IMG/VR virus record: IMGVR_UViG_3300027816_000062 | Reading direction: 5' to 3' (one strand) | Source of the DNA: an uncultured virus (IMG/VR IMGVR_UViG_3300027816_000062) | Taxonomy: Duplodnaviria > Heunggongvirae > Uroviricota > Caudoviricetes | Length of the DNA stretch: 64,000 nucleotides | Shown here: one piece after another, positions 3,608 to 52,986 of the stretch | Position numbering within the stretch: the stretch's first letter is position 1 | How the letters are laid out: each line of letters starts with the position of its first letter | Made by a program: the position numbers and the translations under genes | The notes under the pieces: generated by a model | The model's input: the letters and a program-made list of their open reading frames with translations, nothing else | What the model was told of the DNA's origin: nothing | The model's database searches: none

Positions 3608-3608
3608 G

Positions 3609-4841
3609 ATGAGAAGTTTTTTGTCTCAGGATTTATATAAAATTACGATGAGCCAAGCAGTTTGGCGACTGTTTCCTAATGCCTGGGTGAAATATCACTA
3701 TAAGCTTCGAACAAAAAACGTCAATCTTGCCCCGATTAAAGATCGAATTGATCGCAAAATTCATCAACTTCAAGGTATTGGGCCGACGGCGCTAGAAATC
3801 AACTTTCTTCGATCATTGGGATATTTTGATCCGTCATTTTTGGCATCATTGGCACATTTCAAACTGAACCCAGATGCGTATGTGAAAACAAGCGTGGATC
3901 AAGGGCATTTTGATCTCGTGATCGAAGGACCTTGGTATGATACGATCTTCTTCGAAGTTATGCTGTTGCAAATCATCTCGGAAACATATTTCGAAGATCA
4001 CGCCCGCGAACACCCAGAGGTTTTCGAGGAAGGCAGACAGCGATTGAATGAAAAAATCGAGCACTTGCTTCACATCTACGATCAGTATACAGATCATTAC
4101 GAAAGTCTAAGGGACCTTGAGGGCGGGGGAGAACTCAATCCTTTCTGCCTGATGGAATTCGGCACTCGTCGAGCTTTTTCAGAATCGTGGCAAGGAGAAG
4201 TTGTTGAAACACTTGCGCAAAAACTTCCGCGTGAAATGTTCCTCGGTACATCAAACGTGTATTGGGCACAACAACTTGGGCTTAAGCCACAAGGCACGAT
4301 GGCGCACGAATATATCTGTGCTCATGGAGCGCTTTATCCCTTGCATGAGGCGCAAAAGCAAGCTTTCTACAATTGGAACAAGGTGTTCCAAGGCAAGCTC
4401 GGAACCGCGCTTTCAGATACATTCACTTTTGATCAATTCCTAAGAGACTTTGATTCGGGCTTGGCCAACTTGTTTACAGGAGCTAGGCACGACTCTGGTG
4501 ATCCGTTCGAGTGGGGCCACAAACTCATTGAACACTATCGAACACTGGGAATCAACACTCATACCAAAGTGGCTGTGTGGAGCGATAATCTAGATATCGA
4601 GCTGGCAGAAAAGCTTTGGAAAACTTTTGCCCCGAAAATTAAAACATCATTCGGGATCGGGACCAATTTGACTAATGACATGGGGTTAAAGCCTTTGTCA
4701 CAAGTCATTAAGCTTACTCATGTGAACAACATGCCAGTGATTAAGATTAGTGATGAACCCGAGAAAGTGATGTGCGAAGATGAAACATACAAGGCCTGGG
4801 CTTTGCGACTATTTACAGAAATTTTACCAAATCAATCATGA
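3609..4841 (+). CDS. pncB: nicotinate phosphoribosyltransferase
   Basis: DLYKITM, EFGTRR, GTSNV, GTMAHE, RHDSGDP, FGIGTNLTND and KISDEP motifs. Confidence 0.92.
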   Translation: MRSFLSQDLYKITMSQAVWRLFPNAWVKYHYKLRTKNVNLAPIKDRIDRKIHQLQGIGPTALEINFLRSLGYFDPSFLASLAHFKLNPDAYVKTSVDQGHFDLVIEGPWYDTIFFEVMLLQIISETYFEDHAREHPEVFEEGRQRLNEKIEHLLHIYDQYTDHYESLRDLEGGGELNPFCLMEFGTRRAFSESWQGEVVETLAQKLPREMFLGTSNVYWAQQLGLKPQGTMAHEYICAHGALYPLHEAQKQAFYNWNKVFQGKLGTALSDTFTFDQFLRDFDSGLANLFTGARHDSGDPFEWGHKLIEHYRTLGINTHTKVAVWSDNLDIELAEKLWKTFAPKIKTSFGIGTNLTNDMGLKPLSQVIKLTHVNNMPVIKISDEPEKVMCEDETYKAWALRLFTEILPNQS

Positions 4842-5573: not shown

Positions 5574-5613
5574 AAATCCCCTGTTTTCTTTCTTCTGATC
5601 GGATATATAAATC

Positions 5614-12334: not shown

Positions 12335-12368
12335 AATCCCCGATCTGAATTATGATCGGGGATTTTTT
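12335..12368 (+). terminator. intrinsic terminator
   Basis: AATCCCGATC/GATCGGGATT stem followed by T-run. Confidence 0.75.
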
Positions 12369-23928: not shown

Positions 23929-24040
23929 ATTGGGCAATCTCCAGAACTTATATTTGGCGAAAATTCTGGCTCTCACCTTTGAGGCTAGACGACATTTGAA
24001 AAATCCCTTATTTTCGAGGTTCTGATCGGATATATGAGCT

Positions 24041-24489
24041 ATGGACATTTTGCGTTCGCCTATGACTCTCAAACAAATCATTTCCATGTCTGAGAATGAT
24101 GAAAATGGCTACGTTCATGGAATTGTGCCCTTTTCGCTTGATGAAATCATGAACAACGATTTCGAGGGTATGATGGATTTGTTTTCGGAAAGACTCACTG
24201 CCACTGATCTTTAATGGATATTCATTACGAGGCTGTTGGCTTTGCTAATGGAATGATCTTGATTAAAGTTACTGGCGACCCTGAAACGATCATTGAGGGT
24301 GAATTTGGTCTAAAGGATGAGTTTCCCTACAATCTTCAACCTGGCGACGAGGTTACTTGGAACGACCCCGATGATGGCCTTTGCAGTGTCACAGGTATTA
24401 TTTCTGAGATTGAGTGGAATGGCGACTCTGCAACAATCATGTTTACCTCTGGTCAAGAGATTGAAGTATTGGCAGGAGAGCTTTCGTGA
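24041..24489 (+). pseudogene. hypothetical gene apparently split by a 1-nt shift at CTT-TAA-TG (24209-24216)
   Basis: ORF from promoter-linked ATG 24041 stops at 24214; next frame continues MDIHYEAVG. Confidence 0.45.
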
Positions 24490-25016
24490 AGATTACTAAG
24501 TTTGCAGACATTCCTCAATACACCCGAGGGGCAAATTACGCAGTTAATGTTCCCTGGAGCCACTTGGAACGTGCGCTTGAAGCTTACAATGAGGGATGCA
24601 CTAATCTTTATCTGGACCCTGATTTCCAACGCGGTCATGTCTGGTCACTTGATAAGAAGATTGCTTATGTTACATACATTCTTCGCGGTGGTCAAGGCAG
24701 TCGTGAAATTAAGTTCAATCATCCTAATTGGTCAAATAGTGTCAAAGGAGATATGGTTCTTGTTGACGGTAAACAAAGACTTGAGGCTGTTCGTGGATTT
24801 CTTAGAGATGAATTCCCAATTTATGGTAGCTTGTTCAGTGAATTTACTGATGAATTGCGAATCATGCGATGCGATTTTGTTTTCCAAGTGAATGATTTGA
24901 AAACCAGAGAGGAAGTTTTACAATGGTATCTTGACTTGAATAGCGGTGGTGTTGTTCACACCGAAGAAGAGCTTAATCGAGTCAGAGAAATGCTTGAAAA
25001 GGAAAAGGGGAATTAA
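24486..25016 (+). CDS. DUF262 (GmrS/ParB-like) domain protein
   Basis: PDFQRGHVW and LVDGKQRL motifs. Confidence 0.85.
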   Translation: MKITKFADIPQYTRGANYAVNVPWSHLERALEAYNEGCTNLYLDPDFQRGHVWSLDKKIAYVTYILRGGQGSREIKFNHPNWSNSVKGDMVLVDGKQRLEAVRGFLRDEFPIYGSLFSEFTDELRIMRCDFVFQVNDLKTREEVLQWYLDLNSGGVVHTEEELNRVREMLEKEKGN

Positions 25017-25056
25017 AAAATCCCCTTTTTCAGAATAATGATCGGATATAAGAAGC

Positions 25057-25404
25057 ATGAGTGAAGATTTTTTGAACGGTTTTGCTATCGGTGCTGTTGC
25101 GATTATAGTTATTTGGGTTTGCTCGGCAATTAAGGCGAGTATTCCAAAACCTACAAACATGGGGTGGCTCGATGGATCGGGTGATTGGATTGAGGTGGTT
25201 CGTATCGGTCACTCAGGAGTGACTGTGCGACATTGTGGGTATAATTCACGTAATTCACACTGGACATTTAGGCGCTGTGCAGAAGATGCTGGCTGGCCTC
25301 TTTCCAAGATGCTTGATTACCTGGGCCTTCCCGATGAAAAGACACTCAAGGAAGCTGACATGACCATGGGTGAATGGCTTTCACAAAAAAATAAAAATTC
25401 TTGA
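25057..25404 (+). CDS. membrane-anchored hypothetical protein, paralog of 25906..26262
   Basis: N-terminal TM; CA.DAGW...KM...LGLPDE..LKE..MT.GEWL shared. Confidence 0.8.
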   Translation: MSEDFLNGFAIGAVAIIVIWVCSAIKASIPKPTNMGWLDGSGDWIEVVRIGHSGVTVRHCGYNSRNSHWTFRRCAEDAGWPLSKMLDYLGLPDEKTLKEADMTMGEWLSQKNKNS

Positions 25405-25472
25405 AACTTTTCAAAGGTGATCGCCGTATAACAAAAGAACATACACAAAGCAAAAGCTTTAAGGACACAATT

Positions 25473-25541
25473 ATGACTCGCCGATATCTTTCACTGCTAG
25501 GACTCTTATCGCTTTCTCTTGAGAAAGCGGCGATTAGCTGA
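25473..25541 (+). CDS. putative Leu-sensing attenuator leader peptide MTRRYLSLLGLLSLSLEKAAIS
   Basis: AAGGA SD; 7 Leu in 11 consecutive codons using CTT/CTG/CTA/CTC/TTA; followed by alternative hairpins and tRNA-Leu genes. Confidence 0.8.
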   Translation: MTRRYLSLLGLLSLSLEKAAIS

Positions 25542-25602
25542 TAGATTTTGCGATCAGTGTTTAATCCCCGATTTCTCTCAAGGAGTCGGGGATTTTTGTT
25601 TT
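25509..25602 (+). promoter_or_regulatory. transcription attenuator (pause hairpin, antiterminator, terminator)
   Basis: CGCTTTCT/AGAAAGCG; 25521-25537 pairs with 25561-25577; terminator AATCCCCGATTTC/GAGTCGGGGATT plus T-run. Confidence 0.8.
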
Positions 25603-25614
25603 TGCGTTTCACAT

Positions 25615-25699
25615 ACCGCTCTGGAGTAGCCAAACTTGCTACAGGCAACAGTCTTAGAAACTGTCTCTTTTCTGGGTTGGAATCCCAGGGGCGGTACCA
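25615..25699 (+). tRNA. atypical tRNA-Leu(UAG)-like gene
   Basis: ACCGCTC/GGGCGGT acceptor, ACAGT-CTTAGAA-ACTGT arm, CTGGG/CCCAG T-arm, ACCA end; abnormal D and variable regions. Confidence 0.65.
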
Positions 25700-25750
25700 A
25701 TATTGACAATAGAATAGAGGAAAGAGAAAATAGATTTTCGAGTGATAAAT

Positions 25751-25837
25751 GCGGACGTGGCGGAATTGGTTTACGCGCTACTTTGAGATGGTAGTCCCCG
25801 ATTGGGGGTGTGGGTTCGAGTCCCACCGTCCGCACCA
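25751..25837 (+). tRNA. tRNA-Leu(GAG)
   Basis: cloverleaf with long variable arm, TTCGAGT, CCA. Confidence 0.93.
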
Positions 25838-25905
25838 AAAATCCCTCAAATTTTCGAGCCGCGATTGTATATATGAATTATGAATGATTTTCATGGGAGT
25901 GCTCT

Positions 25906-26262
25906 TTGTCTAGTTGGCTGATCGGGTTGATTATCACGTTCTTTGTGATTTATTTTTTCTTCGGGAGTCAAAACCTTGATGATGAAGAAGAAGATTTAGA
26001 GTACTTACATTCTTGGAAAGATGGAAATGGCTTTACGACTAAAGTAATCCAAATCGGTCACGATAAGATCGTTGTAGAAAATTTTAGCAGAAAGCGCGGG
26101 CGAAAAGTTCGGGTGTGGACTGTTGAAGAATGCGCCAAAGACGCAGGATGGTCAGTTGAAAAGATGAGAGATCATCTTGGCCTTCCCGATGAAAGCGCTT
26201 TAAAAGAAGTTGAAATGACTCTTGGCGAGTGGCTTCACGAAAAGAATCAACATCAAAGATAG
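25906..26262 (+). CDS. membrane-anchored hypothetical protein, paralog of 25057..25404
   Basis: paralogy; start uncertain. Confidence 0.7.
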   Translation: MSSWLIGLIITFFVIYFFFGSQNLDDEEEDLEYLHSWKDGNGFTTKVIQIGHDKIVVENFSRKRGRKVRVWTVEECAKDAGWSVEKMRDHLGLPDESALKEVEMTLGEWLHEKNQHQR

Positions 26263-26316
26263 AACCGATCAGTAAAAAATCCCCTGTTTTCGTGGGGGAT
26301 TTTTGATAGATAAAGC

Positions 26317-27442
26317 ATGGCAACACGAGGCTGGGAGCCCACAGACTACAATCCGAACATTATTCGTGATGTTTCTAATCGAACCATTGAAGAATTTGAA
26401 AACGATATTCGATTTTCTCGTGACTGGGGCTTCGTACAAAGTTATGGCCTTGAAAGAGCTACTCAGCTTCTGGGTCGAGCCCCAGATACCCGAGCAGTTG
26501 AATTCTTTAATGAGTTCATGTCTCAGTATTCCCGAGCCGTCGAGCTTATGGAACAGCTAGGCATCAAAAAGAAGATTCTGAAAAAATTCAAGCGATATCC
26601 GATTGCTCCTTGTCTTTATGCTGATTTGAATGAAGAATGTAATGATGTATTGACGGGATCGAAAATCGGTGGAATTCCTGACCAGCGCCAAGCTGGAAGT
26701 GCGCTGTCTTCAAGGCAATATTGTTAGTCGCATCAAGGCAGCTTGGCCCAAGGATTCAAATGGTAAATATATGATATTCGTTGGCCAAATCAAAGTGCCT
26801 GGACACATCGTCGCTCCCTGGGATTATATCATGGGCGAGAAAATAGACAAGTATGGAAATTATGATCGACCTCTTAATGGGTTTAGCCACGGGCAGAACA
26901 TTTTTGAACAAGAGCATACTTATTTAATTTTTCGCAGTGCGCATGCACCAAATTTTGGAGACATGTTCGATTGTGCGATGGTGCATTCTCGCTTCGATGC
27001 CAATGAATCGGTAAAGGAAGATAAATATATTGAGGCTGTGAAAAAAGCTATTCCGCAGTATCGCCGAAGCAACATGGAAGACAATTGTCCAATTTGGAGT
27101 GATCGGTGTCACACGCTAACTGATTACCGAGTTAGCATGACGCTTGATTTAATTCGCGACTTTGAATGGGCAGGTGGGTTTGAAGGCAATGTATTTGATT
27201 ACATAGATTCGTGGAGAGAACACTTCGGTTCTTATGGCACAATTCAAATTTTTGGCGATCCAAGATCACAACAGACCCCACAGCGATTTGCTGAAACACG
27301 CACTGTTTACCGTCCTCGAATGATGCGCCCGTGGCTTGGAATGACAGACCTAAAGCACGATTACACTTGGCAATATAATTTTTGTCACGAAGGTTTTCTG
27401 AGTGAATCAATTATGGGCAAAGTTGATGGAAGCTGTACCTAA
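26317..27442 (+). pseudogene. YwqG/DUF1963-like gene split across two frames (26317..26727 and 26669..27442)
   Basis: SKIGGIPD in first ORF and WPK..G..M.FVGQI in second are normally contiguous. Confidence 0.5.
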
Positions 27443-27486
27443 TTAAAAATCCCCTGTTTTTCATGGGGGATTTTGATATATAAGGC

Positions 27487-27888
27487 ATGGCTGATTATTA
27501 CACCCATTTTTCCTTTGTCGTTGACGTTAAGAATCGTGAACAAGCAGACGGTTTGAAGAAAATGCTCACCCAGGCCAAAAATGAAGAGCTAAATGAAGAA
27601 ACTTTGTACACTCCTTGGAGTTGTGAAACTAAGGACGATTTAACTAGCTTTTGGTTTCACTCTGATGATTGTGGTCAGGTTGATCTTATTGTTGACATTT
27701 TGGCTAAATGGCAAGAAGACTTCAATTACGATCAGCCCATTTGTTTTGAGTGGGCGAATACTTGTAGTAAGCCCAAACTGGATGCTTTTGGTGGTGGGTC
27801 AGTTCTGATTTACAAGGGCGAAGCTCATTACACGAACACTTTTGATTGGTTGACTAAAAAGAAAGCCGAACTTGGAATCGTTGACTGA
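27487..27888 (+). CDS. hypothetical protein
   Basis: MADYYTHFS and FEWANTCSKP.LDAFGGG motifs; promoter upstream. Confidence 0.8.
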   Translation: MADYYTHFSFVVDVKNREQADGLKKMLTQAKNEELNEETLYTPWSCETKDDLTSFWFHSDDCGQVDLIVDILAKWQEDFNYDQPICFEWANTCSKPKLDAFGGGSVLIYKGEAHYTNTFDWLTKKKAELGIVD

Positions 27889-27935
27889 CTAAAAAATCCC
27901 CTGTTTTTCAATAGGGGATTTGATATATCAATTGT

Positions 27936-28070
27936 GCCAAGAAGCACTTGAAGTGCAGTCTACGGATATGCCTTATTAGGGCATGTGATTACTGCGTAGG
28001 AAGGACAGGGTGTAATGAAGTACGGTCGCGACGAAAAGTTACATCGGGTTAAAATCCCAACTTGGCACCA
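27936..28070 (+). ncRNA. tRNA-like RNA with enlarged core (~135 nt)
   Basis: GCCAAG/CTTGGC-ACCA ends, GGG-TTAAAAT-CCC T-like arm, internal hairpins; starts right after promoter motif. Confidence 0.6.
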
Positions 28071-28092
28071 AATTGAAAAATGAGAATCTAAT

Positions 28093-28393
28093 CGGGGCGT
28101 GGCGAAATGGCAGACGCAGGGGACTTATAAAATGAGCACTTGTTTGTGAAAGCTGCAAGTGAATGCAATCAAATTCGGTGAAACCTTAACAGTTAGGCTG
28201 ATGGCAATACCGAGCCAAGCTAACTCAAAACAGAGTTAGAAGGTGTAGAGACTAGATGGTTGCTGCCTAAGTCGAAAGATATGGCAAAGGTATAGTCCAG
28301 ACCACAAAATCCTTTGGGATCGTAGTGAAAGCTATAGTGGTATGAAAATCCCTTAGTAGCAATACTGTGTGGGTTCGAGTCCCACCGCCCCGA
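28093..28393 (+). tRNA. tRNA-Leu(UAA) interrupted by group I intron
   Basis: exons 28093-28126 and 28345-28393 splice to GGGGA-CTTAAAA-TCCCT; CGGGGCG/CGCCCCG acceptor. Confidence 0.9.
28127..28344 (+). mobile_element. group I intron (IC3-like) in tRNA-Leu(UAA) anticodon
   Basis: CTT/GAG P1, AAATTCGGTGAAAC (P), AATACCGAGCC (Q), GTAGAGACTAGATGG (R), AGGTATAGTCC (S), terminal G. Confidence 0.88.
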
Positions 28394-28443
28394 TTAGGTT
28401 ATATATTGATTACTAATGCGCTTTGTGTGCTTTTAGTATAAGA

Positions 28444-28941
28444 ATGTTTGTGTCACGTTTGCAAAAATATACCCTAGAGGAGATAAAAGAAATAATATCT
28501 AAATCAAAATCTTATGCTGAAGTAATTCGATCTATTGGTTTAATTCCTGCTGGTGGAAATTACAAAACATTGCAAAGTTTTGTACATGAATACCGAATTG
28601 ATACTTCGCATTTTCTGGGCTCAGCTTGGGGGCGAGGAAACCAATTGGATTATCTCCACAATAGCAATAGAAAATCATTAGAAGATGTTTTTTCGGGAAA
28701 AGTAGCTTATAAATCAAGCCATAAATTAAGGCTTCGGCTGATTAAAGAAGGATATTTTGAGCATAAATGCTATAAATGTGGACTAAAAGAGTGGCAAGGA
28801 CACGAAATACCCTTGGAATTAGAGCATATAAATGGAGATCATTGTGATAACAGTCTCGAAAACCTCATTATTCTTTGCCCCAACTGTCATGCTCAAACAG
28901 AAACTTATGCTGGTAAAAACAAAAAAAGACGATTAGGTTAA
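28444..28941 (+). CDS. free-standing HNH endonuclease
   Basis: CYKCG..W.G..IPLELEHINGD..DN.LENL..LCPNCH. Confidence 0.9.
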   Translation: MFVSRLQKYTLEEIKEIISKSKSYAEVIRSIGLIPAGGNYKTLQSFVHEYRIDTSHFLGSAWGRGNQLDYLHNSNRKSLEDVFSGKVAYKSSHKLRLRLIKEGYFEHKCYKCGLKEWQGHEIPLELEHINGDHCDNSLENLIILCPNCHAQTETYAGKNKKRRLG

Positions 28942-28981
28942 AAATCCCCTAAATTTTTCTTCAGATTTCGATAAATTAATT

Positions 28982-29230
28982 ATGATCGATGACAAAAGAA
29001 CTTCAGAATGTGTTATTCTTCATATTGAAGTTGATGTTGAGTACCCTGAAGGAATGCATCTTGGGGTTGTTCTATCTGGTTTGCAAAACAATGCGAAAAT
29101 TGCCATTACTGAACTTGATGACGATAGGGTCCAAATCACAGCAAATAGAATCACAGCAGTTGAACATTTTGTTACTGGAGAAATTTTAGAAGATTACCAG
29201 TGGAAAAAGAAAAAAGAATCTCCTCGATAA
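28982..29230 (+). CDS. hypothetical protein
   Basis: promoter motif variant upstream. Confidence 0.65.
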   Translation: MIDDKRTSECVILHIEVDVEYPEGMHLGVVLSGLQNNAKIAITELDDDRVQITANRITAVEHFVTGEILEDYQWKKKKESPR

Positions 29231-29234
29231 ATGT

Positions 29235-29318
29235 GCCGCAGTGGTGGAATGGTAGACACGGCAAGCTCAAACCTTGCTGCCGAAAGGCGTGAAGGTTCGA
29301 ATCCTTTTTGCGGCACCA
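29235..29318 (+). tRNA. tRNA-Leu(CAA)
   Basis: cloverleaf, GCAAG-CTCAAAC-CTTGC, variable arm, CCA. Confidence 0.93.
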
Positions 29319-29386
29319 TATTTTCACATATGCATGACTATGTGAAAAATCCCCTGTTTTCTCTTTCTTGATCGGATATATAAATC

Positions 29387-30016
29387 ATGTTTAATATGAA
29401 TGTGATTCTTTTCAAGAACAATTCTATCGAAGAAAATTATCTTTTCTCTGGTGAAAATTCTGAAGATGTTGCGAAAAAGGCAGAAAGCAAAATGATTGAA
29501 ATTCTTCGTTCAGAAATGTCTAACTTTGACGAATACACGTCGGAAGATATTGACAACATTTTGGAAGATGGATATGAATCCTTTGGAAATGGAGCGGTTT
29601 TTATTACGTGGCCTGACATTGTTGATGTTGATAAGGAGATTGATTCGGAAAATAATTTTGTTTTTCGTGGCACTATTGAATACTCCATCCCGCACATTGA
29701 TTCAGAAGTAGTTCGCCTGTGCGCCGCACTAAATGAGCCCATTGAAGTTGGTCTACAGTGGGAATCACATTATCGCAATGGTAATGGCTACGCTGTCCGC
29801 GTTAATGCAGATATCTACTCAGTTGATGAAGAACTTGCTGCCGAGGAATTTAGTGATTATTGGGATTCAGGATGCGATGATGAAATTCGCTATTCTGGGG
29901 ACTACAATTGGTCCCTTTTGGGCAAAGACTATAAAGAGGCCATCAGTATTCTCCAAAAGTATGTTGATGAGCAAAAGCGTCGTTACCCAGGCTACGATAT
30001 TAGAATTAGCAAATAA
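29387..30016 (+). CDS. hypothetical two-domain protein
   Basis: promoter motif; C-terminal half similar to 19177..19599. Confidence 0.75.
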   Translation: MFNMNVILFKNNSIEENYLFSGENSEDVAKKAESKMIEILRSEMSNFDEYTSEDIDNILEDGYESFGNGAVFITWPDIVDVDKEIDSENNFVFRGTIEYSIPHIDSEVVRLCAALNEPIEVGLQWESHYRNGNGYAVRVNADIYSVDEELAAEEFSDYWDSGCDDEIRYSGDYNWSLLGKDYKEAISILQKYVDEQKRRYPGYDIRISK

Positions 30017-30053
30017 TCCCCTGTTTTCTCTTTCTTGATCGAATATATAAATC

Positions 30054-30476
30054 ATGACAATTGACGGAAAGTTGCTTAAAAGACTAATGTGTAGCAACGA
30101 GGCTTTTGATATTTTGGGTGACATCGTAAGTTGGAATTCTGGAGGTTGCTGGATTCTTGCCGAAGCTCTGCGCCGATTCATTGGCGATCAGGCTACTATC
30201 GTGGCCATCGCTGATGATCGCTGCCAACACCAACATATTGTCGTGAAAGTGGGGAATTTGTATTATGACGCCGACGGAGAGTCGAACGAAGGGCGTCTGC
30301 TGCATCGCTGGATGGATTATGAACGACTCCGTAATCCTCGAATCGTAGGTTTTGATCCAGAACTGGCCGCTGATTTAGAAATTCCTTGCGAAGAAGAACT
30401 TGTAACGCAAGTCTATAACTTGCTGAACTCGCGTCTGAAAAATCCCCTTTTTTCACAATCGGGAGCGCATATATAA
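30054..30476 (+). CDS. hypothetical protein, possible Cys-His-Asp (papain/transglutaminase-like) fold
   Basis: GGC..LA.AL, QH.VV, YYDADG. Confidence 0.55.
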   Translation: MTIDGKLLKRLMCSNEAFDILGDIVSWNSGGCWILAEALRRFIGDQATIVAIADDRCQHQHIVVKVGNLYYDADGESNEGRLLHRWMDYERLRNPRIVGFDPELAADLEIPCEEELVTQVYNLLNSRLKNPLFSQSGAHI

Positions 30477-30479
30477 ATC

Positions 30480-30686
30480 ATGGACCCATTTCTTTTTTAT
30501 TCTACCTATTTTATCTTGGGACTTGGTTTTATGTTCGCATTGATGGCAATCGGAGCGCATCACTATACCAATGGCCCATCTCGTGAACAAGAACAAAAAC
30601 AAAGAATCAAGTTTATTATTCTATCAGTGCTTTTAATAGCTAGTGCAATTTTTCTGGGCCGTTATGCTGCGGGTCTGCTTTTTTGA
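30480..30686 (+). CDS. small membrane protein
   Basis: two TM segments; promoter motif. Confidence 0.7.
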   Translation: MDPFLFYSTYFILGLGFMFALMAIGAHHYTNGPSREQEQKQRIKFIILSVLLIASAIFLGRYAAGLLF

Positions 30687-30752
30687 TTTCATTCTCTTGA
30701 AATGGTTTTAAAAAATCCCCTTTTTTCAGAAAACCAAATCAATATAAAAAAT

Positions 30753-31073
30753 ATGCGAATTCGACCGCAATCCGACCCGAACAAGGAATATCTCATCGAC
30801 TTTTACTACCCGTATGGGAAGCAAGGACACAAGAAGAAGGGCACCAAGACTGTCTGCACTATCTCTGTCGGCCCTGTGGGTAGTCTCGACAAGGACAAGA
30901 CCGAAGTCTCGACCACTACCGTTCGCCGACATAGTACCGATCAGGACAATCTTGTCGTAGCTCGTAATTATGCACTGGCCAAGGCCCTATCCCCGATTGA
31001 AGCTAGTGTCCGACAAGAGATTTGGGAACAGGCTCCGATTCGACGAGCAGACATTTCCCTGGAACTCGACTAA
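30753..31073 (+). CDS. hypothetical phage protein
   Basis: promoter motif; T.CTI..H..D....AR..AL.KAL. Confidence 0.7.
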   Translation: MRIRPQSDPNKEYLIDFYYPYGKQGHKKKGTKTVCTISVGPVGSLDKDKTEVSTTTVRRHSTDQDNLVVARNYALAKALSPIEASVRQEIWEQAPIRRADISLELD

Positions 31074-31200
31074 ACTCCAAAAACATTCTCATTGAGGGAG
31101 AATTTAATCCCTCAATGAGAAAAAACAAAAAACTGCTAACAAAAAGCAGGTGATCGTCGTATAATAAGAGAAGAAACTGAAAAGCACAAAGAGCTATATT

Positions 31201-31323
31201 ATGAATCATCTCTTATCGACGACAATATGTGGAACAACAGGAACCTCAACAAGAGGAATCCTTTCCCTTGGCGTTATCGGCAAGGATAGTGATTCTGATT
31301 CAGGAGAACCCATCGAATCGTAG
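31201..31323 (+). CDS. putative Gly/Thr/Ser-sensing attenuator leader peptide (40 aa)
   Basis: MNHLLSTTICGTTGTSTRGILSLGVIGKDSDSDSGEPIES; codon run GGA ACA ACA GGA ACC TCA ACA AGA GGA; followed by alternative hairpins and tRNA-Gly(UCC), Ser(UGA), Thr(UGU). Confidence 0.75.
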   Translation: MNHLLSTTICGTTGTSTRGILSLGVIGKDSDSDSGEPIES

Positions 31324-31343
31324 CTTTACTGTGATTACAGAAC

Positions 31344-31384
31344 AAAGAGGCTCGATTCGATAAGATCGAGCCTCTTTTCTTTTT
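31344..31384 (+). terminator. attenuator terminator with overlapping antiterminator
   Basis: AAAGAGGCTCGAT/ATCGAGCCTCTTT plus T-run; 31312-31327 can instead pair with 31347-31361. Confidence 0.85.
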
Positions 31385-31513
31385 AGATATGATGTCTGGG
31401 AAGAGAAAGATCGAATATTGAAAATTTCATACAGGTATAGATATAAAAGTGTTAGGGGGTGTTGGATCGATCTTTGATCGCAGGCCTCACCCCCTTGATC
31501 GAGACACATTTTC

Positions 31514-31587
31514 GCGAGATTGGTATATGGGTTGTGCCCTAGCCTTCCAAGCTAGAGAAAAGGGTTCGAATCCCTTATCTCGCTCCA
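31514..31587 (+). tRNA. tRNA-Gly(UCC)
   Basis: cloverleaf, CTAGC-CTTCCAA-GCTAG, TCCA end. Confidence 0.92.
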
Positions 31588-31638
31588 ATTTAAGACACAT
31601 TTCTTTGTGCTGCCAATGGGCAGCTTTCAAAAGAAAAC

Positions 31639-31725
31639 GGATGGGTGACAGAGCGATCTATTGTAGCGGTCTTGAAAACCGCCGTGCCAAAAGCACCGTG
31701 GGTTTGAATCCCACCCCATCCTCCA
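31639..31725 (+). tRNA. tRNA-Ser(UGA)
   Basis: cloverleaf, GCGGT-CTTGAAA-ACCGC, variable arm, CCA. Confidence 0.9.
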
Positions 31726-31823
31726 TTTTGTAACAAAATCATAAAATTCAAAGCAGGTGTAGCTCAGTGGTAGAGCGCCCGCCGCGAAGGTTGATGGTTG
31801 CAATATCGATAAATAGATTATGT

Positions 31824-32240
31824 ATGGCAATAACAAAATACAAAGGAGCCGTCGGGCTAACTAATGTAATGGCCTGTCTTGTCAATCAAAAAGCAAAAAT
31901 CTTTGTTCCAATAGACGAAGACTGTCAATATGACCTGGTGGTAGATTATCAAAATTATCTTTACAGAGTGCAAGTTAAATATGCTGAGGCAAAAAATGGC
32001 AAGATCGTTGTAAAGACGCGCTCAACGAATAACTATTGTGAAATTCGTTATACTAAAGATCATTTTGACGTGATTGCTGTTTGGGACAATGTTGGCAAAA
32101 AAGCATATTTTATTTCATCGAATTTAATCACAGAAGGAATGACGGAAATGACCTTGAGATTAGATGCACCAAAAAACAATCAAACTAAAAACATAAGATT
32201 GGCTCGTAATTATGAGCAATTTAATGCTGCGGTCGCATAG
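31824..32240 (+). CDS. PD-(D/E)XK homing-type endonuclease (group I intron-associated family)
   Basis: KG..G, P.DE...YDLVVD.....RVQVKY, Y....FD. Confidence 0.85.
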   Translation: MAITKYKGAVGLTNVMACLVNQKAKIFVPIDEDCQYDLVVDYQNYLYRVQVKYAEAKNGKIVVKTRSTNNYCEIRYTKDHFDVIAVWDNVGKKAYFISSNLITEGMTEMTLRLDAPKNNQTKNIRLARNYEQFNAAVA

Positions 32241-32308
32241 TGGTCGATTGCACCTCTCTTGTAAAGAGGAACTCCACACCGTGGGTTCGAATCCCACCCG
32301 TAGCTCCA
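32226..32308 (+). tRNA. tRNA-Thr(UGU)
   Basis: GCTGCGG/CCGTAGC, CCTCT-CTTGTAA-AGAGG, TCCA; 11-nt variable region. Confidence 0.88.
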
Positions 32309-32422
32309 TTTTTCGCACATATGTGTCAGGGGTTCGAATCCCCTCTCCTGCTTTGAGTTGAGTGATGATATCCGATCATAAAAAATCCCCCTTTTTCTCA
32401 ATAGTGATCGGATATATAAAGT

Positions 32423-33022
32423 ATTGCTGTGAGCTAAATCAATTGACACAGCATGATGAAACCAAAATCATCTAAAAACAATAAGGTGCTCCATATACGT
32501 CTGGGAAAGATAAATTAGACGTGGACACACTGTGATGTGGACTAATCACAGCGCACTGGGGCATGTGTGCAAGCCCGAAAAGCCTATCTTTACTGATATA
32601 GTTAAAGAGAAAGAGCAGAGAGTTAAGGCTTAAAATAAACTCCATGCGTTCGTAAGGATGAACTCAAAGACGAGTTCAGTTATGACTAGGATACGAGAGG
32701 AGGGAGGCAATGAGTTTCTCTCCTCTCCCCGACAAAGCGATTTCCGACTGCTCATCGGAGAAGTGATCTAGTAAAACACTCAGAAAAACACTAGCGTAGG
32801 AAATGCGTTAATCCCTGATTTTTTATCGGTTTTTAGAGACAAAAAACTGTTCGTATAGGGCTTGCGGTAAGCCTCTTGTTTTAGCTAGGTGATCCTGTAT
32901 GTAAAAACCAAGCGGATGGAACAAATCAATTTGTTTTCGCGAGCAAATGATCCATTGACTTTGGGGAACAGCGTAAGAACGTTTCGCCATGAGGCTTTGA
33001 GCAAAGTCTCGTTCCCCAAAAA
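32423..33022 (+). ncRNA. large highly structured ncRNA (~600 nt), possibly ROOL/GOLLD-like
   Basis: no credible ORF, begins at promoter motif, more than 10 helices, abuts tRNA-Asp. Confidence 0.7.
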
Positions 33023-33034
33023 TAAAAAGATTCT

Positions 33035-33111
33035 GGGTATGTAGTTCAGTTGGTTAGAGCACCTGCCTGTCACGCAGGAAGTCGCGAGTTCAAGTCTCGT
33101 CATATCCGCCA
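33035..33111 (+). tRNA. tRNA-Asp(GUC)
   Basis: cloverleaf, CCTGC-CTGTCAC-GCAGG, GCCA. Confidence 0.94.
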
Positions 33112-33131
33112 AAATTTCCAAAGGAGACAAA

Positions 33132-33347
33132 ATGAATAGACAAATAGAAAGCCTCGATCATCTGGTGTCTCTTGGGCTACTGACATCATATGAGTTTGTA
33201 AACGTGTCAGCCAATAACATTGAGGGCGAGATTTCAGAACATCATAATTCTGATCGATTGAAACTCATATTCCCGAATGGGTTGGAAGTGAAGATCACTG
33301 CGATCACAACAGGCATGGAAGAAGATGCTCTTTTGAGATTGGAATAA
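33132..33347 (+). CDS. hypothetical protein
   Basis: AAGGAG SD. Confidence 0.7.
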   Translation: MNRQIESLDHLVSLGLLTSYEFVNVSANNIEGEISEHHNSDRLKLIFPNGLEVKITAITTGMEEDALLRLE

Positions 33348-33387
33348 AAATCCCCCATTTTCAGAAGAGTGATCGGATATAAGAAGT

Positions 33388-33645
33388 ATGGAAGCAAAGA
33401 TTTATCGCCAGGCTCATCCCCAGGATGAAAATCGTCTTTCTGTTGCCGCTGATATTTTTGCACGGCGGCACCGCCTTGAGATTTCTCACCACAGCGATTT
33501 GAACTACACTGATCTAACTGGGGCAAACAATTTGGCTTTCCTTTGGGAACGCGCAAAGTGCCGAGCATTACTTATGCCCTTGAAGATCAGTGAAAAGCAT
33601 CAAATTTGGCTTGAGAACGACAAAATTGTTCTGACTCCTTACTGA
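33388..33645 (+). CDS. hypothetical protein
   Basis: promoter motif upstream. Confidence 0.7.
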   Translation: MEAKIYRQAHPQDENRLSVAADIFARRHRLEISHHSDLNYTDLTGANNLAFLWERAKCRALLMPLKISEKHQIWLENDKIVLTPY

Positions 33646-33695
33646 CAATGGTCCCGCTTGGGAACACTATCGGCAAGACCAATCGTAGAACAAGT

Positions 33696-33986
33696 ATGAA
33701 TAGTTCAGACAACATTCTTCAGGAACAAGAAATCGAAAGAATTCTCACGTCATTTATCCAATCGCGAAATCGACAAGAAAGAGAATGCTCATTGGAGGAA
33801 TGCCAAGGGATTATTAATTGGGCAGCTGAAGTTATTGTGAATTACACAGCCTTGCAGCTTTTATTAAAAGGTCATGCGGAAATCGAAGATTTTGATGGTG
33901 ATGATGTTCGTCTCACCACTCCCGAAAACATTCAGTTTCATACTCCGCTGATGAATCAAATCGCGAGGCAAATTGAAGAACTTTAA
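33696..33986 (+). CDS. hypothetical protein
   Basis: ORF in array; start uncertain. Confidence 0.6.
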   Translation: MNSSDNILQEQEIERILTSFIQSRNRQERECSLEECQGIINWAAEVIVNYTALQLLLKGHAEIEDFDGDDVRLTTPENIQFHTPLMNQIARQIEEL

Positions 33987-34167
33987 TAATTGATTTTCCA
34001 ACGAAGCACCTTGGCAAGAGCTTTTTCTAACAGTTTTGGCTCCATGCCAAGAAGGACACGTGCCCTGAAACCACGTGTTAATGCTGAAAATATGGGGACA
34101 ATCGGGAGAGACCGATAAAAAATCCCTCTTTTTTGGGGAATGAAATTCATATAAGAAATGTGAAGTG

Positions 34168-39648: not shown

Positions 39649-39858
39649 ATGAACGATTCAAATCGCTTTGAAGTAATCAGCTCAGGTCCATACAATTTGA
39701 AGATTGTTGCGCAAACTATGACTGAGTGCATGGATATGATTCGACGAAACTCTGACATGGTGGACTTCTGGGCAGTTTTAGACCATTCTACGAAAACCGT
39801 GGTCGCTTTAAGCCAGGACTGGAAAGTCTTGCCAACATTCAAACCCGCAGTAAACTAA
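39649..39858 (+). CDS. hypothetical protein
   Basis: promoter motif; TAATG-coupled to PARP gene. Confidence 0.65.
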   Translation: MNDSNRFEVISSGPYNLKIVAQTMTECMDMIRRNSDMVDFWAVLDHSTKTVVALSQDWKVLPTFKPAVN

Positions 39859-41138
39859 TGAAAGAATCTCGATATATTTTCGCTGACGTGAGCGCGAATA
39901 ATAACAAGTTTTGGAACATCAAAATTGAACCAAACTTCACGGTCGTAACTTCGTGGGGCCGAGTCGGAGATAACGCACAATCAAAGGAATTTCCCCACGG
40001 AAGCCTTGCAGACGCAGAAAAGTTCTTCGATAGGAAATGCCGCGAAAAGGAACGAAAAGGATACGTTAAGCAAAGAGTTCTGATCGGAGAATACACCACG
40101 CAAGATAACACTTCGCTTGCGTCAGTTGCCAAACAACAAATCAACACAAATAGCCCCGAATTAGATGAACTAATTGCCTTCCTGACTAAAGCAAACGTTC
40201 ATAACATTCTAACAGCAACAGCTATGGAATACGACACTTCAAAGGGAGTTTTTACAACGCCCCTCGGAGTTGTCACGAACGATGCCATTCAAGATGCACG
40301 AAGCATCTTGGCATCAATGGGCCTTCTTGTGCATAATCAAGATTGGAACTCCCCCGATTGGAATTCGCTCTTGTCTATGTACCTTACTGCCATCCCTCAA
40401 AAGATTGGACGCAGAAAGCCAGACCCAAGAGAACTCTTCCCGAGCCTTCAAGCTATTCAAAATCAAAGCAAAATTCTTGACGACCTGGAAGCATCATTCC
40501 AATCTGTCGTGAGCGCACCACTGACGCAGAAAGGGGATGACACAAACACGCCACAAGTGTTTGATGTGAAATTGCATCTTGTAGACGATCAAAGCATAAT
40601 TCGACGAATCAAAAACAAATACGACTCCACACGAAAGACCATGCACGCATCATATCATCTGGGGGTGAAACGAGTCTTTTCTGTCGAAATTAACGCGATG
40701 GCAAAGGCATATGGTGATCGGGGAAAGAACGTCGGCAACGTGATGGAACTCTGGCATGGGACACGAGCGGGGAACCTTTTGAGCATCCTTAAAGGCGGAC
40801 TGCAAGTCCCACCCGCATCGAGCCCTCATGTGACGGGGAGAATGTTCGGGGATGGATTGTATTTTTCAGATCAGTCCACGAAAAGCCTCAATTATGCCTA
40901 TGGAGCAGCACCAGGACAAAGAGGAGGAATTGAATCGTCCACGTTCATGTTTCTCGCAGATGTAGCAATGGGACGCCCATTTGTCCCAACGTCCTATACA
41001 CGACCGTCAAAGTACCCCGTGCAAGGACATGATTCAATATTTGCAAAAGCAGGACAATCAGGCGTACACAATAATGAAATGATCGTATACACCACCGATC
41101 AATGCAACCTCACCTACCTGGTTGAATTCGGAAACTAA
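39858..41138 (+). CDS. WGR-domain PARP-like ADP-ribosyltransferase
   Basis: NNKFW..WGRVG..KERKGY (WGR); LWHGT, GRMFGDGLYFSD.STKS.NY, NNEMIVY (H-Y-E triad). Confidence 0.92.
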   Translation: MKESRYIFADVSANNNKFWNIKIEPNFTVVTSWGRVGDNAQSKEFPHGSLADAEKFFDRKCREKERKGYVKQRVLIGEYTTQDNTSLASVAKQQINTNSPELDELIAFLTKANVHNILTATAMEYDTSKGVFTTPLGVVTNDAIQDARSILASMGLLVHNQDWNSPDWNSLLSMYLTAIPQKIGRRKPDPRELFPSLQAIQNQSKILDDLEASFQSVVSAPLTQKGDDTNTPQVFDVKLHLVDDQSIIRRIKNKYDSTRKTMHASYHLGVKRVFSVEINAMAKAYGDRGKNVGNVMELWHGTRAGNLLSILKGGLQVPPASSPHVTGRMFGDGLYFSDQSTKSLNYAYGAAPGQRGGIESSTFMFLADVAMGRPFVPTSYTRPSKYPVQGHDSIFAKAGQSGVHNNEMIVYTTDQCNLTYLVEFGN

Positions 41139-46715: not shown

Positions 46716-47612
46716 ATGAGTAGAGTAAAGAGAGTTATTGATAATGGTCTGGTATCGAAAAACTCAGTGCCAAAGCACTTCCCCGATTCGATTCAATACG
46801 AGACGATCATGGGAAGTGTGGCCTACGGAGTGTCTTCTGATACGTCGGATATGGATATTTATGGATTTTGTATCCCGCCCAAGCACATTGTCTTTCCTCA
46901 CTTAGCGGGACATATCCCTGGCTTTGGTCAACAGCCTGAGAAATTCGAGCAATGGTCGGTGCATCATATCAAAGATGAAGAAAAAAATACCGAGTACGAT
47001 TTTTGCATTTACAATATCGTCAAGTATTTTAGTTTGGTTATGGAAAACAATCCCAACATGGTGGATTCTCTTTTCACTCCACAAAACGCGATTTTGCACT
47101 GCTCTCCAATCGCTCAAATGGTGCGTGACGAACGTCATATCTTCTTGCATAAGGGAGCGTGGCACAAGTTCAAGGGCTATGCCTACTCGCAGATGCACAA
47201 AATTCGATCAAAGGAGGCTCCGCAAGGCAAGCGAAAAGAGCTGGTGGAACAGTTTGGATTCGACGTGAAGTTTGCTTATCATGTTGTAAGATTGATTGAC
47301 GAAGTTGAGCAAATTCTTGTTGAGGGCACTCTTGATCTTCAAAGAAATCGAGAACAGCTTAAATCTATTCGGAGAGGTGAATGGACTTTAGAGGAAATCG
47401 AGGAATACTTTACTCGTCGAGAAAAAGAACTTGAGCTGGCTTATGCTAACTCAAAGCTGCCTCACACGCCCGATGAAAAGCGAATCCGCCAGCTTTTGAT
47501 GAATTGCCTTGAGCATCATTACGGAAACCTATCAGACGCCGTAGTGGATGTTGACGCGGCCACGAGAACACTTCAGCAAGTTGCGCATCTAATTCGACAA
47601 GGGGGATTCTAA
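46716..47612 (+). CDS. pol-beta superfamily nucleotidyltransferase
   Basis: GSVAYG....SDMDIYG, NNPN, FKGYA, K.AYH..RL, L.SIRRG. Confidence 0.88.
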   Translation: MSRVKRVIDNGLVSKNSVPKHFPDSIQYETIMGSVAYGVSSDTSDMDIYGFCIPPKHIVFPHLAGHIPGFGQQPEKFEQWSVHHIKDEEKNTEYDFCIYNIVKYFSLVMENNPNMVDSLFTPQNAILHCSPIAQMVRDERHIFLHKGAWHKFKGYAYSQMHKIRSKEAPQGKRKELVEQFGFDVKFAYHVVRLIDEVEQILVEGTLDLQRNREQLKSIRRGEWTLEEIEEYFTRREKELELAYANSKLPHTPDEKRIRQLLMNCLEHHYGNLSDAVVDVDAATRTLQQVAHLIRQGGF

Positions 47613-51468: not shown

Positions 51469-51545
51469 GACTTTTTTAACAAAAAGTCCCAAAATCATAG
51501 GACGATTTTGTTTTTTGATCGTATAATAGATAAGGACACTTTATT

Positions 51546-51638
51546 ATGAAGACCCACACCACATCAAATACGAATATGGTCTTCACCCGACGCAATTCCG
51601 CGACGGGCGTCCAACAACGCTGTCGGCGTTCCGCTTAA
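51546..51638 (+). CDS. putative Gln/Arg/Cys-sensing leader peptide MKTHTTSNTNMVFTRRNSATGVQQRCRRSA
   Basis: AAGGA SD; codon run CAA CAA CGC TGT CGG CGT; precedes tRNA-Gln x2, Arg x2, Cys. Confidence 0.7.
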   Translation: MKTHTTSNTNMVFTRRNSATGVQQRCRRSA

Positions 51639-51727: not shown

Positions 51728-51801
51728 TCGGGGATCGTCTAGAGGCAGGACTCTGGTCTCTGGAACCAGAAGCGGTGGTTCGAATCCATCTCTCCGAGCC
51801 A
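51728..51801 (+). tRNA. tRNA-Gln(CUG)
   Basis: cloverleaf, CTGGT-CTCTGGA-ACCAG, GCCA. Confidence 0.9.
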
Positions 51802-51808
51802 GCTTCAC

Positions 51809-51894
51809 TGGGTCTTAGGCGAATTGGTAGAGCCGCCTGTCTTTGGAACAGGACTCCTGAAAAGGTGGAGGTTCGAATCCTCCCGACCCAGCCA
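51809..51894 (+). tRNA. tRNA-Gln(UUG) with extended variable arm
   Basis: CCTGT-CTTTGGA-ACAGG, CCT-GAAA-AGG extra arm, GCCA. Confidence 0.85.
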
Positions 51895-51966
51895 ATTAAA
51901 GGCTTTATGCATTTTGAAAAAATAATTAAAAAAGGCTTTCTTAACAGAAGTACATAATTAAAACGA

Positions 51967-52752
51967 GTGATTCAAACTTCCAATAAGAAAACAAGAGTAA
52001 AGCGCAGTCGAATTTGGACGATGCCTAAAGACGAGTTCGCTCAACTAGTGGCCTCAAGTCAAACTTATGTCGAAATTCTCCGAGCCATTAACTACACCAT
52101 ACGAGGAGGAGCTTTTCGAATTTTAAAAGAACGAATTGCGACAGAAATGATCGACGATTCACATATATTAAAGAATGGAAGGCAAACCATTTATGCCCAT
52201 AGATTCAATACTCGGTCAGATGACGATATATTTTGCGAAAATTCTACATACAATAGTGGCCCTGCCCTGAAAAAGAGAATGATTAAGCTAGGCTTACCTG
52301 AAGAATGCACAAAATGTGGGCTTGGTGCAACATGGAATGATGAACCTCTATCTCTGCAAGTAGACCATATCAATGGGGTGCGCAACGATAACAGATTAGA
52401 GAATTTGAGGCTTCTGTGCCCAAATTGTCATTCTCAAACCGAAAATTTTGCTGGCAGAAAGTTGAACGCAAAAAACAAATCATGTCCAGAATGCTGCGCT
52501 AAGATCAGTGGATACCGTAAAGATCAGAGATGCCAATCTTGTGCCAATAAGATCAGGTCTAGAGAAATGCAACTAATATCAAAACCATCAAAAGACGAGC
52601 TTCAAGATATGTTGTGGAAAATGCCCGCGACTAGGATTGCTAAGATATACAATGTGTCCGATAAAACAGTTGGTAATTGGGCTAAATCCTACAAAATTGA
52701 CAAACCGAGCCGTGGACACTGGGTCAAAAAAAATACTCCCCCCCCCTTGTAG
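51967..52752 (+). CDS. HNH endonuclease with C-terminal zinc ribbon and HTH
   Basis: LQVDHING.RNDNRLENLRLLCPNCHSQT; CPEC..CQSC; IAK.Y.VSDKTV..W. Confidence 0.9.
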   Translation: MIQTSNKKTRVKRSRIWTMPKDEFAQLVASSQTYVEILRAINYTIRGGAFRILKERIATEMIDDSHILKNGRQTIYAHRFNTRSDDDIFCENSTYNSGPALKKRMIKLGLPEECTKCGLGATWNDEPLSLQVDHINGVRNDNRLENLRLLCPNCHSQTENFAGRKLNAKNKSCPECCAKISGYRKDQRCQSCANKIRSREMQLISKPSKDELQDMLWKMPATRIAKIYNVSDKTVGNWAKSYKIDKPSRGHWVKKNTPPPL

Positions 52753-52818
52753 CTTAATGGATAGAGCGCAGCACTTCGGATGCTGATGTTATGGGTTCGA
52801 GTCCTATCGAGGGGGCCA
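52743..52818 (+). tRNA. tRNA-Arg(UCG)
   Basis: cloverleaf, CAGCA-CTTCGGA-TGCTG, GCCA. Confidence 0.9.
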
Positions 52819-52829
52819 AAATTTAAAAC

Positions 52830-52905
52830 ACGCCTGTAGCTCAGTGGATAGAGCATCAGCTTGCGGAGCTGAGGGTCGGAGGTTCGAACCCTCTCAGGCG
52901 TGCCA
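52830..52905 (+). tRNA. tRNA-Arg(GCG)
   Basis: cloverleaf, TCAGC-TTGCGGA-GCTGA, GCCA. Confidence 0.9.
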
Positions 52906-52911
52906 ATATAC

Positions 52912-52986
52912 GGCCACGTACCCAAATGGTTAAGGGCTCCCTCTGCAAAAGGGATGTTGCGAGTTCGATTCTCGCCGTGGCCTCCA
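52912..52986 (+). tRNA. tRNA-Cys(GCA)
   Basis: cloverleaf, TCCCT-CTGCAAA-AGGGA, TCCA. Confidence 0.93.

Follow-up and report, generated by a model that had tools for sequence, protein, structure and literature searches.

The 64,000-nucleotide (nt) stretch analyzed here (the window; IMG/VR record IMGVR_UViG_3300027816_000062, Caudoviricetes) is DNA of a large uncultured freshwater phage, in which ARAGORN finds 15 transfer RNA (tRNA) genes plus an intron-split tRNA-Leu(UAA). One pair of tRNA elements is part of an arrangement here called unit 1 (25415-25837), a putative self-contained transcription unit made up of a promoter, a 5' untranslated region (UTR), a short Leu-rich leader open reading frame (ORF), an RNA switch of competing hairpins, a tRNA-like element, and tRNA-Leu(GAG) (Table 1). 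The standard phage promoter that lies immediately beyond tRNA-Leu(GAG) marks unit 1 off as a closed module. We consider it somewhat probable that unit 1 is a leader-peptide attenuator that senses Leu decoding and controls the tRNA genes downstream of it.

Table 1. Features of the three tRNA-linked units, with positions in the window
Feature	Position	Strand	Details
Unit 1 promoter-like box	25415..25432	+	AGGTGATCGCCGTATAAC; putative activity
Unit 1 Shine-Dalgarno-like site	25461..25465	+	AAGGA, 7 nt 5' of leader ATG
Unit 1 leader ORF	25473..25541	+	MTRRYLSLLGLLSLSLEKAAIS; 22 codons, 7 Leu; ATG 25473, TGA 25539-25541
Unit 1 hairpin 1:2	25510..25529	+	Strand 1 25510-25517, strand 2 25522-25529; -10.4 kcal/mol
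Unit 1 antiterminator hairpin 2:3	25521..25577	+	-20.3 kcal/mol
Unit 1 intrinsic terminator 3:4	25563..25603	+	Stem 25563-25594, 14 pairs, then T-run TTTGTTTTTG; -20.6 kcal/mol
tRNA-like element	25615..25699	+	7-bp acceptor stem, A73, CCA; loop CUUAGAA (UAG) on perfect 5-bp stem
Sigma-70-like site	25703..25731	+	TTGACA-17-GAAAAT; between the two tRNA elements
tRNA-Leu(GAG)	25751..25837	+	ARAGORN; Rfam 57.6 bits
Standard phage promoter	25839..25877	+	Starts next gene; directly 3' of tRNA-Leu(GAG)
Unit 2 promoter-like box	31148..31165	+	AGGTGATCGTCGTATAAT
Unit 2 leader ORF	31201..31323	+	MNHLLSTTICGTTGTSTRGILSLGVIGKDSDSDSGEPIES; 40 codons
Unit 2 antiterminator	31312..31361	+	-20.6 kcal/mol; 12/14 arm bases; 5' strand straddles stop codon 31321-31323
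Unit 2 intrinsic terminator	31344..31386	+	14 bp, T-run; -21.7 kcal/mol
Unit 2 tRNA block	31514..32308	+	Gly(UCC) 31514-31587, Ser(UGA) 31639-31725, PD-(D/E)XK endonuclease ORF, Thr(UGU) 32226-32308
Unit 3 promoter-like sequence	51517..51528	+	GATCGTATAATA
Unit 3 short ORF	51546..51638	+	MKTHTTSNTNMVFTRRNSATGVQQRCRRSA; behind GATCGTATAAT and AAGGACAC; ends ...VQQRCRRSA
Unit 3 tRNA block	51728..52986	+	Gln(CUG), Gln(UUG), HNH endonuclease ORF, Arg(UCG), Arg(GCG), Cys(GCA)

The leader ORF opens at the first ATG of the predicted transcript, after a 40-nt 5' UTR, and has Leu at codons 6 (CTT), 8 (CTG), 9 (CTA), 11 (CTC), 12 (TTA), 14 (CTT), and 16 (CTT). An earlier note, made from the letters of this DNA alone, had claimed 7 Leu in 11 codons and the use of five of the six kinds of Leu codon, and both counts hold, the 11 codons being 6 to 16. 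Leu accounts for 7 of the 21 residues after Met1, against a background fraction of 0.079 in the 69 long ORFs of the window (binomial P, 8e-4). As a null set we took the 594 ATG ORFs of 15 to 60 codons in all six frames of the window, of which only two, the leader itself being one, reach the Leu fraction of the leader.

The unit 1 box has ATCG..TATAA in common with the standard promoters of the phage, and the exact box GATCGNCGTATAA has two occurrences in the window, at 25419 and 31152. The standard, phage-specific promoter has the form AAAAATCCCC-N16-ATCGGATATATAA, with 41 matches on the plus strand and 10 on the minus strand (examples are at 5574, 9629, 21316, 29347, and 43657), and precedes most genes; at 18 of the 41 plus-strand sites an ATG lies 3 nt 3' of the promoter, which implies leaderless mRNAs for most genes. 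The promoters of the tRNA units are set apart from these, since they keep ATCG..TATAA, lack the AAAAATCCCC box, and are followed by a 40-nt UTR with AAGGA.

The intrinsic terminator (strands 3 and 4) sits between the leader ORF and the tRNA genes, 11 nt 5' of the tRNA-like element. Of the 17 positions at which strand 25521-25537 faces 25561-25577, 15 are paired (by hand count, 14 Watson-Crick and 1 G-U), and the full antiterminator hairpin, which pairs 13 of the 16 tested bases (the terminator 5' arm plus 2 loop bases), is larger than the earlier note had claimed; the hairpin at 25510-25529, the 15 of 17 pairing, and the terminator with its T-run from 25563, all described in that note, were each recovered. 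Terminator and antiterminator are mutually exclusive and of nearly equal stability (-20.6 versus -20.3 kcal/mol). In the absence of a ribosome, hairpin 1:2 is part of an upstream domain of -33.4 kcal/mol, here called the protector, in which 1:2 and pairings of the ORF start with 25531-25562 hold strand 2, and the terminator arm stays free. Shuffles of the 42-nt segment that precedes the terminator arm, with dinucleotides kept, yielded an antiterminator of equal strength and with as many arm bases held in 1 of 2,000 cases, and 6 of 9,118 natural 42-mers drawn from the window did the same.

Hairpins of the form AATCCCC...GGGGATT followed by a T-run recur in the window (12335-12364, 26280-26310, and 27447-27486) and are often fused to a standard promoter, so that one element has both functions. 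The terminator of unit 1 belongs to this class but has no -10 part.

The predicted behavior of the hairpins was followed in a mask scan, in which a ribosome footprint reaching from -15 to +13 of the A site was placed at each codon and the transcript was folded with strand 4 absent. With the A site at any of codons 1 to 12, a range that includes Leu codons 6, 8, 9, 11, and 12, the antiterminator captures 12 of the 14 bases of the terminator 5' arm; it captures 3 at codon 13, none at codons 14 to 19 or at the stop codon, 6 at codons 20 to 22, and none when there is no ribosome. The annotated Escherichia coli thrL and leuL attenuators served as positive controls for the same script. For thrL the counts are 0 without a ribosome, 8 to 9 of 14 at codons 1 to 15, and 0 at the stop codon, which is the nearest simulated behavior to that of unit 1, and leuL gives a weaker version of the pattern (0 without a ribosome, 3 to 6 of 13, and then 0).

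The layout of unit 1 recurs at 31148-31386 (unit 2), before another tRNA block, an arrangement absent from the earlier note, and this second copy strengthens the idea of an attenuator. Units 1 and 2 are identical at 25 of 30 positions from AGGTGATCG onward, covering the box and the start of the UTR, and both run to ...ATTATGA. Unit 2 is a paralogue of unit 1, with a homologous promoter and 5' UTR. The unit 2 leader is rich not in Leu but in the amino acids Gly, Ser, Thr, and Asp, which make up 22 of 39 residues against a background of 23.6% (P, 1e-5), a level found in 2 of the 594 null ORFs, itself included. Its antiterminator is matched by none of 2,000 shuffles and by 2 of 9,116 natural 42-mers. 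Unit 2 lacks a protector, and the sole simulated state that keeps its antiterminator from forming, and that in part only, has the ribosome at codons 36 to 41. A gene for tRNA-Asp(GUC) follows the unit 2 block, behind a further standard promoter.

All 12 other plus-strand terminator-like sites of the window, collected in four scans and having at least 7 pairs with at least 4 G-C pairs, served as an internal control set. At none of the 12 does a strong terminator go together with an upstream partner that holds at least 80% of its arm. The best upstream alternative ranges from -0.5 to -13.9 kcal/mol at the control sites, against -20.3 and -17.5 kcal/mol at units 1 and 2, and the ratio of alternative to terminator is 0.03 to 0.58 for the five strong controls (-15 kcal/mol or better), against 1.01 and 0.83 for units 1 and 2. 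Three weak control hairpins (-9.7 to -11.4 kcal/mol) have a ratio above 1, but their alternatives hold just 5 to 7 of 10 arm bases.

A third tRNA block is also preceded by a promoter-like sequence and a short ORF (unit 3). The QQRCRR run near the end of this ORF, six residues that are all cognate to the tRNAs of the block, is found in one of the 594 null ORFs, namely the ORF itself, and 28 of them equal or exceed its overall cognate fraction of 8 of 29. When the three leaders are tabulated against the three tRNA sets, enrichment is seen on the diagonal only. Unit 3 is nevertheless not counted as an attenuator; it is a weak member of the group and gives just a hint.

Several features of the tRNA blocks of units 2 and 3 stand apart from the switches. 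Within the unit 3 block, tRNA-Gln(UUG) (51809-51894) has 86 nt and, unusually for Gln, a long variable arm, and the HNH endonuclease gene (51967-52752; PF13392 and PF01844) overlaps at its 3' end with the start of tRNA-Arg(UCG). In the unit 2 block, tRNA-Thr(UGU) is 83 nt long and has an enlarged variable region. Two segments, 31751-31790 and 32325-32352, resemble a 5' and a 3' tRNA half, with 6 of 7 acceptor positions paired by eye, and they flank the PD-(D/E)XK endonuclease ORF (PF11645; E, 7e-23) and tRNA-Thr(UGU). A mobile insertion may have divided one tRNA gene in this way, and ARAGORN made no call for such a split tRNA with introns of up to 700 nt allowed. Beyond them, between a standard promoter (32383) and tRNA-Asp, about 600 nt without a long ORF (32420-33034) contain two terminator-like hairpins, a degenerate tRNA-unit box AGGTGATCCTGTATGTAA near 32887, and, read by eye, a small ORF MSFSPLPDKAISDCSSEK led by a Shine-Dalgarno (SD) sequence.

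The genes that unit 1 would control are one clear tRNA gene and one doubtful one. The earlier note had named a tRNA-Leu(UAG)-like element and tRNA-Leu(GAG), of which the GAG gene is confirmed and the UAG element, with a T arm whose loop is TTGGAAT and with odd connectors, is non-canonical and below threshold. ARAGORN with default settings makes no call at 25615-25699, and with a relaxed threshold it folds a different cloverleaf there, Val(AAC). The same note had placed tRNA-Leu(UAA) and tRNA-Leu(CAA) further downstream, and both are present (28092-28394 and 29235), but behind other promoters and genes and thus outside unit 1. The tRNA-Leu(UAA) gene has a 218-nt group I intron in its anticodon loop (Rfam, 58.2 bits; found in the intron mode of ARAGORN), and a weak HNH-like ORF (28423-28941) follows it directly.

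A number of observations weigh against unit 1 being a Leu-sensing attenuator, beginning with the leader itself. The match to anticodons at the codon level is not significant, as CTN makes up 6 of the 7 leader Leu codons against 66% in the phage genes, and wobble matching of leaders to anticodons, by hand counts, shows a trend in the expected direction that is likewise not significant. The CU-rich strand 1 forces Leu or Ser codons in frame, and the leader peptide, with two Arg followed by a Leu-rich stretch, resembles the start of a signal peptide, so the Leu richness could have another cause. Among the 69 long ORFs just 12 follow an SD-like 4-mer, and the genes appear mostly leaderless, which makes the use of SD sequences in the host of this phage uncertain. 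Downstream, the tRNA-like element scores 25 bits with the Rfam tRNA model (RF00005), below the threshold of 29, and transcription of tRNA-Leu(GAG) could bypass the switch by starting from the sigma-70-like site at 25703-25731, a weak candidate in that 40 such sites occur in 14 kb where 28 +/- 5 are expected. Unit 3 has no canonical terminator, just a 5-bp GTTAC/GTAAC stem plus a T-run, which the terminator scan did not pick up. There is also no sequence variation in which covariation could be sought, the three metagenome contigs and the three DNA runs compared being identical.

The simulations set limits of their own. The stall logic proposed in the earlier note stands for the four-strand anatomy and for ribosomes at Leu codons 6 to 12, which free strand 2 in silico, and fails for Leu codons 14 and 16, where a stall falls in the zone that still terminates. 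The constrained folding that the note had suggested reveals the switch when strand 4 is absent, whereas the equilibrium fold of the full-length transcript favors the terminator wherever the ribosome stands (P, 0.93 to 0.96). The energy gained by forming the terminator in the stalled state is -14 to -19 kcal/mol for unit 1, -12 to -24 kcal/mol for thrL, and -18 to -20 kcal/mol for leuL; because the E. coli attenuators have a similar gain, the equilibrium test cannot discriminate, and antitermination, if there is any, must by this modeling be kinetic, as in classical attenuators.

Searches for relatives and for expression returned little. In IMG/VR, a search with three neighboring proteins gave relatives for just one of them, a widespread ParB/GmrSD_N-like protein (best, 62%), and none of the 17 loci scanned among the 80 retained has a tRNA block directly downstream in the arrangement of the window. 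The promoter box gave three chance matches in IMG/VR, all inside coding DNA, and neither the odd T arm nor the standard promoter gave any. In one metatranscriptome run (X20), a contig covers 25884-26099 only, together with a 35-base tRNA-like piece; the leader is without cover, and the run is uninformative for it.

The alternative that survives best, although we regard it as unlikely, is a plain generic terminator that ends transcription of the upstream gene (25057-25404) and insulates tRNA genes that have their own promoter, with the ORF incidental or unrelated: a frame left open by chance in structured, CU-rich RNA, a signal-peptide remnant, or a micropeptide. The stem does resemble the other AATCCCC...GGGGATT hairpins, both that at 12335-12364 and the promoter-linked ones, the sigma-70-like site could be the promoter required, the terminator dominates at equilibrium, and the conservation and expression searches gave no support for a switch. 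A plain terminator, however, leaves unexplained an antiterminator as strong as the terminator itself (1 of 2,000 shuffles), a feature that the sole other strong terminator before a tRNA block has likewise (0 of 2,000) and that none of the 12 control sites has. It also accounts neither for the dedicated promoter-like box and the unusual 40-nt UTR with AAGGA nor for the enrichment of each leader in the amino acids of its own block alone.

A switch that depends on translation but not on Leu, responding to general ribosome availability or to the coupling of transcription and translation, with the Leu richness secondary, is in our view improbable. It would fit the mask scan, where a stall anywhere in codons 1 to 12, on Leu or not, favors the antiterminator, and it would fit unit 2, whose default is read-through unless a ribosome reaches the region of the stop codon; but it gives no reason for leader composition to track the downstream tRNA sets. 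There is similarly little chance that the element is a stand-alone small RNA (sRNA) gene of 168 nt (about 25436-25603) that acts in trans, the ORF being untranslated or secondary. The whole leader does fold beyond its shuffles (-50.5 kcal/mol; z, -4.2; 0 of 200 as good), and its length from promoter to terminator is typical of sRNAs, which terminated attenuator RNAs can also become, according to two reports (10.1101/606483, PMC7968998). No Rfam family matches it at threshold, however, and an sRNA needs no ORF with SD and ATG that matches the amino acids of the next genes, yet this combination occurs twice; an sRNA would in any case be compatible with attenuation rather than exclusive of it. 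Rfam hits to anti-hemB (24.5 bits versus 49.5) and NsiR1 (23 versus 39) were rejected, being far below threshold and overlapping the terminator hairpin.

Leader-peptide attenuation is a textbook form of control of amino-acid biosynthesis, and to our knowledge all described leader-peptide attenuators regulate genes of amino-acid biosynthesis or aminoacyl-tRNA synthetase genes, whereas unit 1 is followed by a tRNA-like element and tRNA-Leu(GAG). The closest counterpart is leuL of E. coli and Salmonella (Rfam Leu_leader, RF00512), which has the same short ORF with a Leu cluster, protector, antiterminator, and terminator, in which ribosome position selects the fold, and which gives the same qualitative pattern in simulation with the E. 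coli sequence. Unit 1 differs in that its Leu codons are of five kinds and interspersed, where leuL has a run of one codon, and in that it targets phage tRNA genes and not biosynthetic enzymes, so that feedback would act on the supply of tRNA and not of amino acid. Neither Leu_leader nor any other Rfam leader model matches 24000-34000 at E values of up to 1, nor does any reach its gathering score anywhere in the window. The ilvGMEDA leader is a multivalent attenuator, and the unit 2 leader combines several regulatory amino acids, much as Thr and Ile are combined in thrL; unlike thrL, unit 2 has no protector, so its untranslated RNA would read through, and its targets are tRNA genes.

The pheST (pheM) attenuator and the T-box riboswitches place genes of the translation apparatus under the control of charged or uncharged tRNA. 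Unit 1 is like them in that its products take part in decoding the amino acid that would be sensed, and unlike them in that they regulate aminoacyl-tRNA synthetase genes, and the T-box binds tRNA directly and needs no ORF; the Rfam T-box model has no match in the window. The idea of a Phe leader before the E. coli tRNA-Phe genes was discarded, as pheV has just a promoter directly upstream and no such ORF. Unit 1 has every structural feature of the leu, thr, and ilv operon attenuators that was tested, and its class of target is not one described for such attenuators; no description of leader-peptide attenuation of tRNA genes was found in open-access papers and preprints. Phage tRNAs have been reported to counter tRNA-targeting defences, and the phage described here resembles the carriers of the tRNA arrays in those reports, arrays viewed as counter-defence or as codon supply, in being large and having many tRNA genes (PMC10264068, PMC11555353, PMC11464382). 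The accessible portions of these papers describe the function of the tRNAs and do not mention a leader-peptide switch.

The phage itself has no close cultured relative, the top match of its rIIA protein in a search against phages being 29% identical, and DNA searches of a phage collection gave matches confined to tRNA itself, at 74 to 79% identity. Proteins encoded in the window include rIIA-like, nicotinate phosphoribosyltransferase (NAPRTase; 3582-4841), WGR-PARP-like (39858-41138), ArdC-like, and RlaP-family (46716-47612) proteins and a GH108 lysin; RlaP belongs to an RNA repair pathway (PF10127), which fits a phage that copes with RNA or tRNA damage. Unit 1 is flanked by paralogous genes (25057-25404 and 25906-26262) with no assigned function, 43% identical and with a common C-terminal motif, DAGW...LGLPDE...GEWL; one distant relative, with 47% protein identity, lies on a high-GC metagenome contig without tRNAs. 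The same DNA is present in three metagenome contigs of 84 to 379 kb, identical over 481 bases, and at least half of the sampled words were found in 19 DNA runs, mostly labeled freshwater and dated 2017 to 2025, in which the stretch 24900-26300 is present at 99 to 100%. Three of the DNA runs were compared and have no base differences across 1.4 kb, which suggests either that the phage is widespread and very uniform or that linked waters were sampled repeatedly.

The attenuator reading of unit 1 is well supported by its anatomy, internal replication, and controls, from which we infer the function. In this model a ribosome would load on the nascent leader. When Leu codons are read fast, it would reach codons 14 to 22 or the stop codon and cover strand 2, the terminator would form, and an RNA of about 168 nt would be released. 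When Leu-tRNA is scarce, through host shut-off, tRNA-cleaving defence nucleases, or heavy phage demand, the ribosome would lag on Leu codons 6 to 12 and cover strand 1 and the upstream protector, strand 2 would capture the 5' arm of the terminator as it emerges, and RNA polymerase would read into the Leu tRNA genes. In the absence of translation, the protector domain would hold strand 2 and transcription would terminate. The switch would thus serve as a gauge of decoding capacity whose output acts back on the supply of tRNA. Unit 2 would apply the same idea to Gly, Ser, and Thr, and perhaps Asp, in a simpler two-state form whose logic is a race, in which only a ribosome that arrives promptly at the stop codon masks the antiterminator and permits termination.

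More tentatively, and stopping short of calling it probable, we propose that each tRNA block of the phage has its own codon-matched leader-peptide attenuator, that these form a family in which every member is switched on by slow cognate decoding, and that together they serve as a sensor of depletion or cleavage of host tRNA. The blocks in question would be those for Leu, for Gly, Ser, and Thr, and, perhaps by another RNA mechanism, for Gln, Arg, and Cys. If this is true, attenuation would be extended from the supply of amino acids to the supply of tRNA, with the speed of decoding as the quantity sensed and tRNA as the output of a direct feedback loop. Such switches, if real, would explain the timing and dosing of the tRNA arrays of large phages, would connect these arrays with the bacterial defences that target tRNA, and would be compact natural sensors of codon-specific translation speed.

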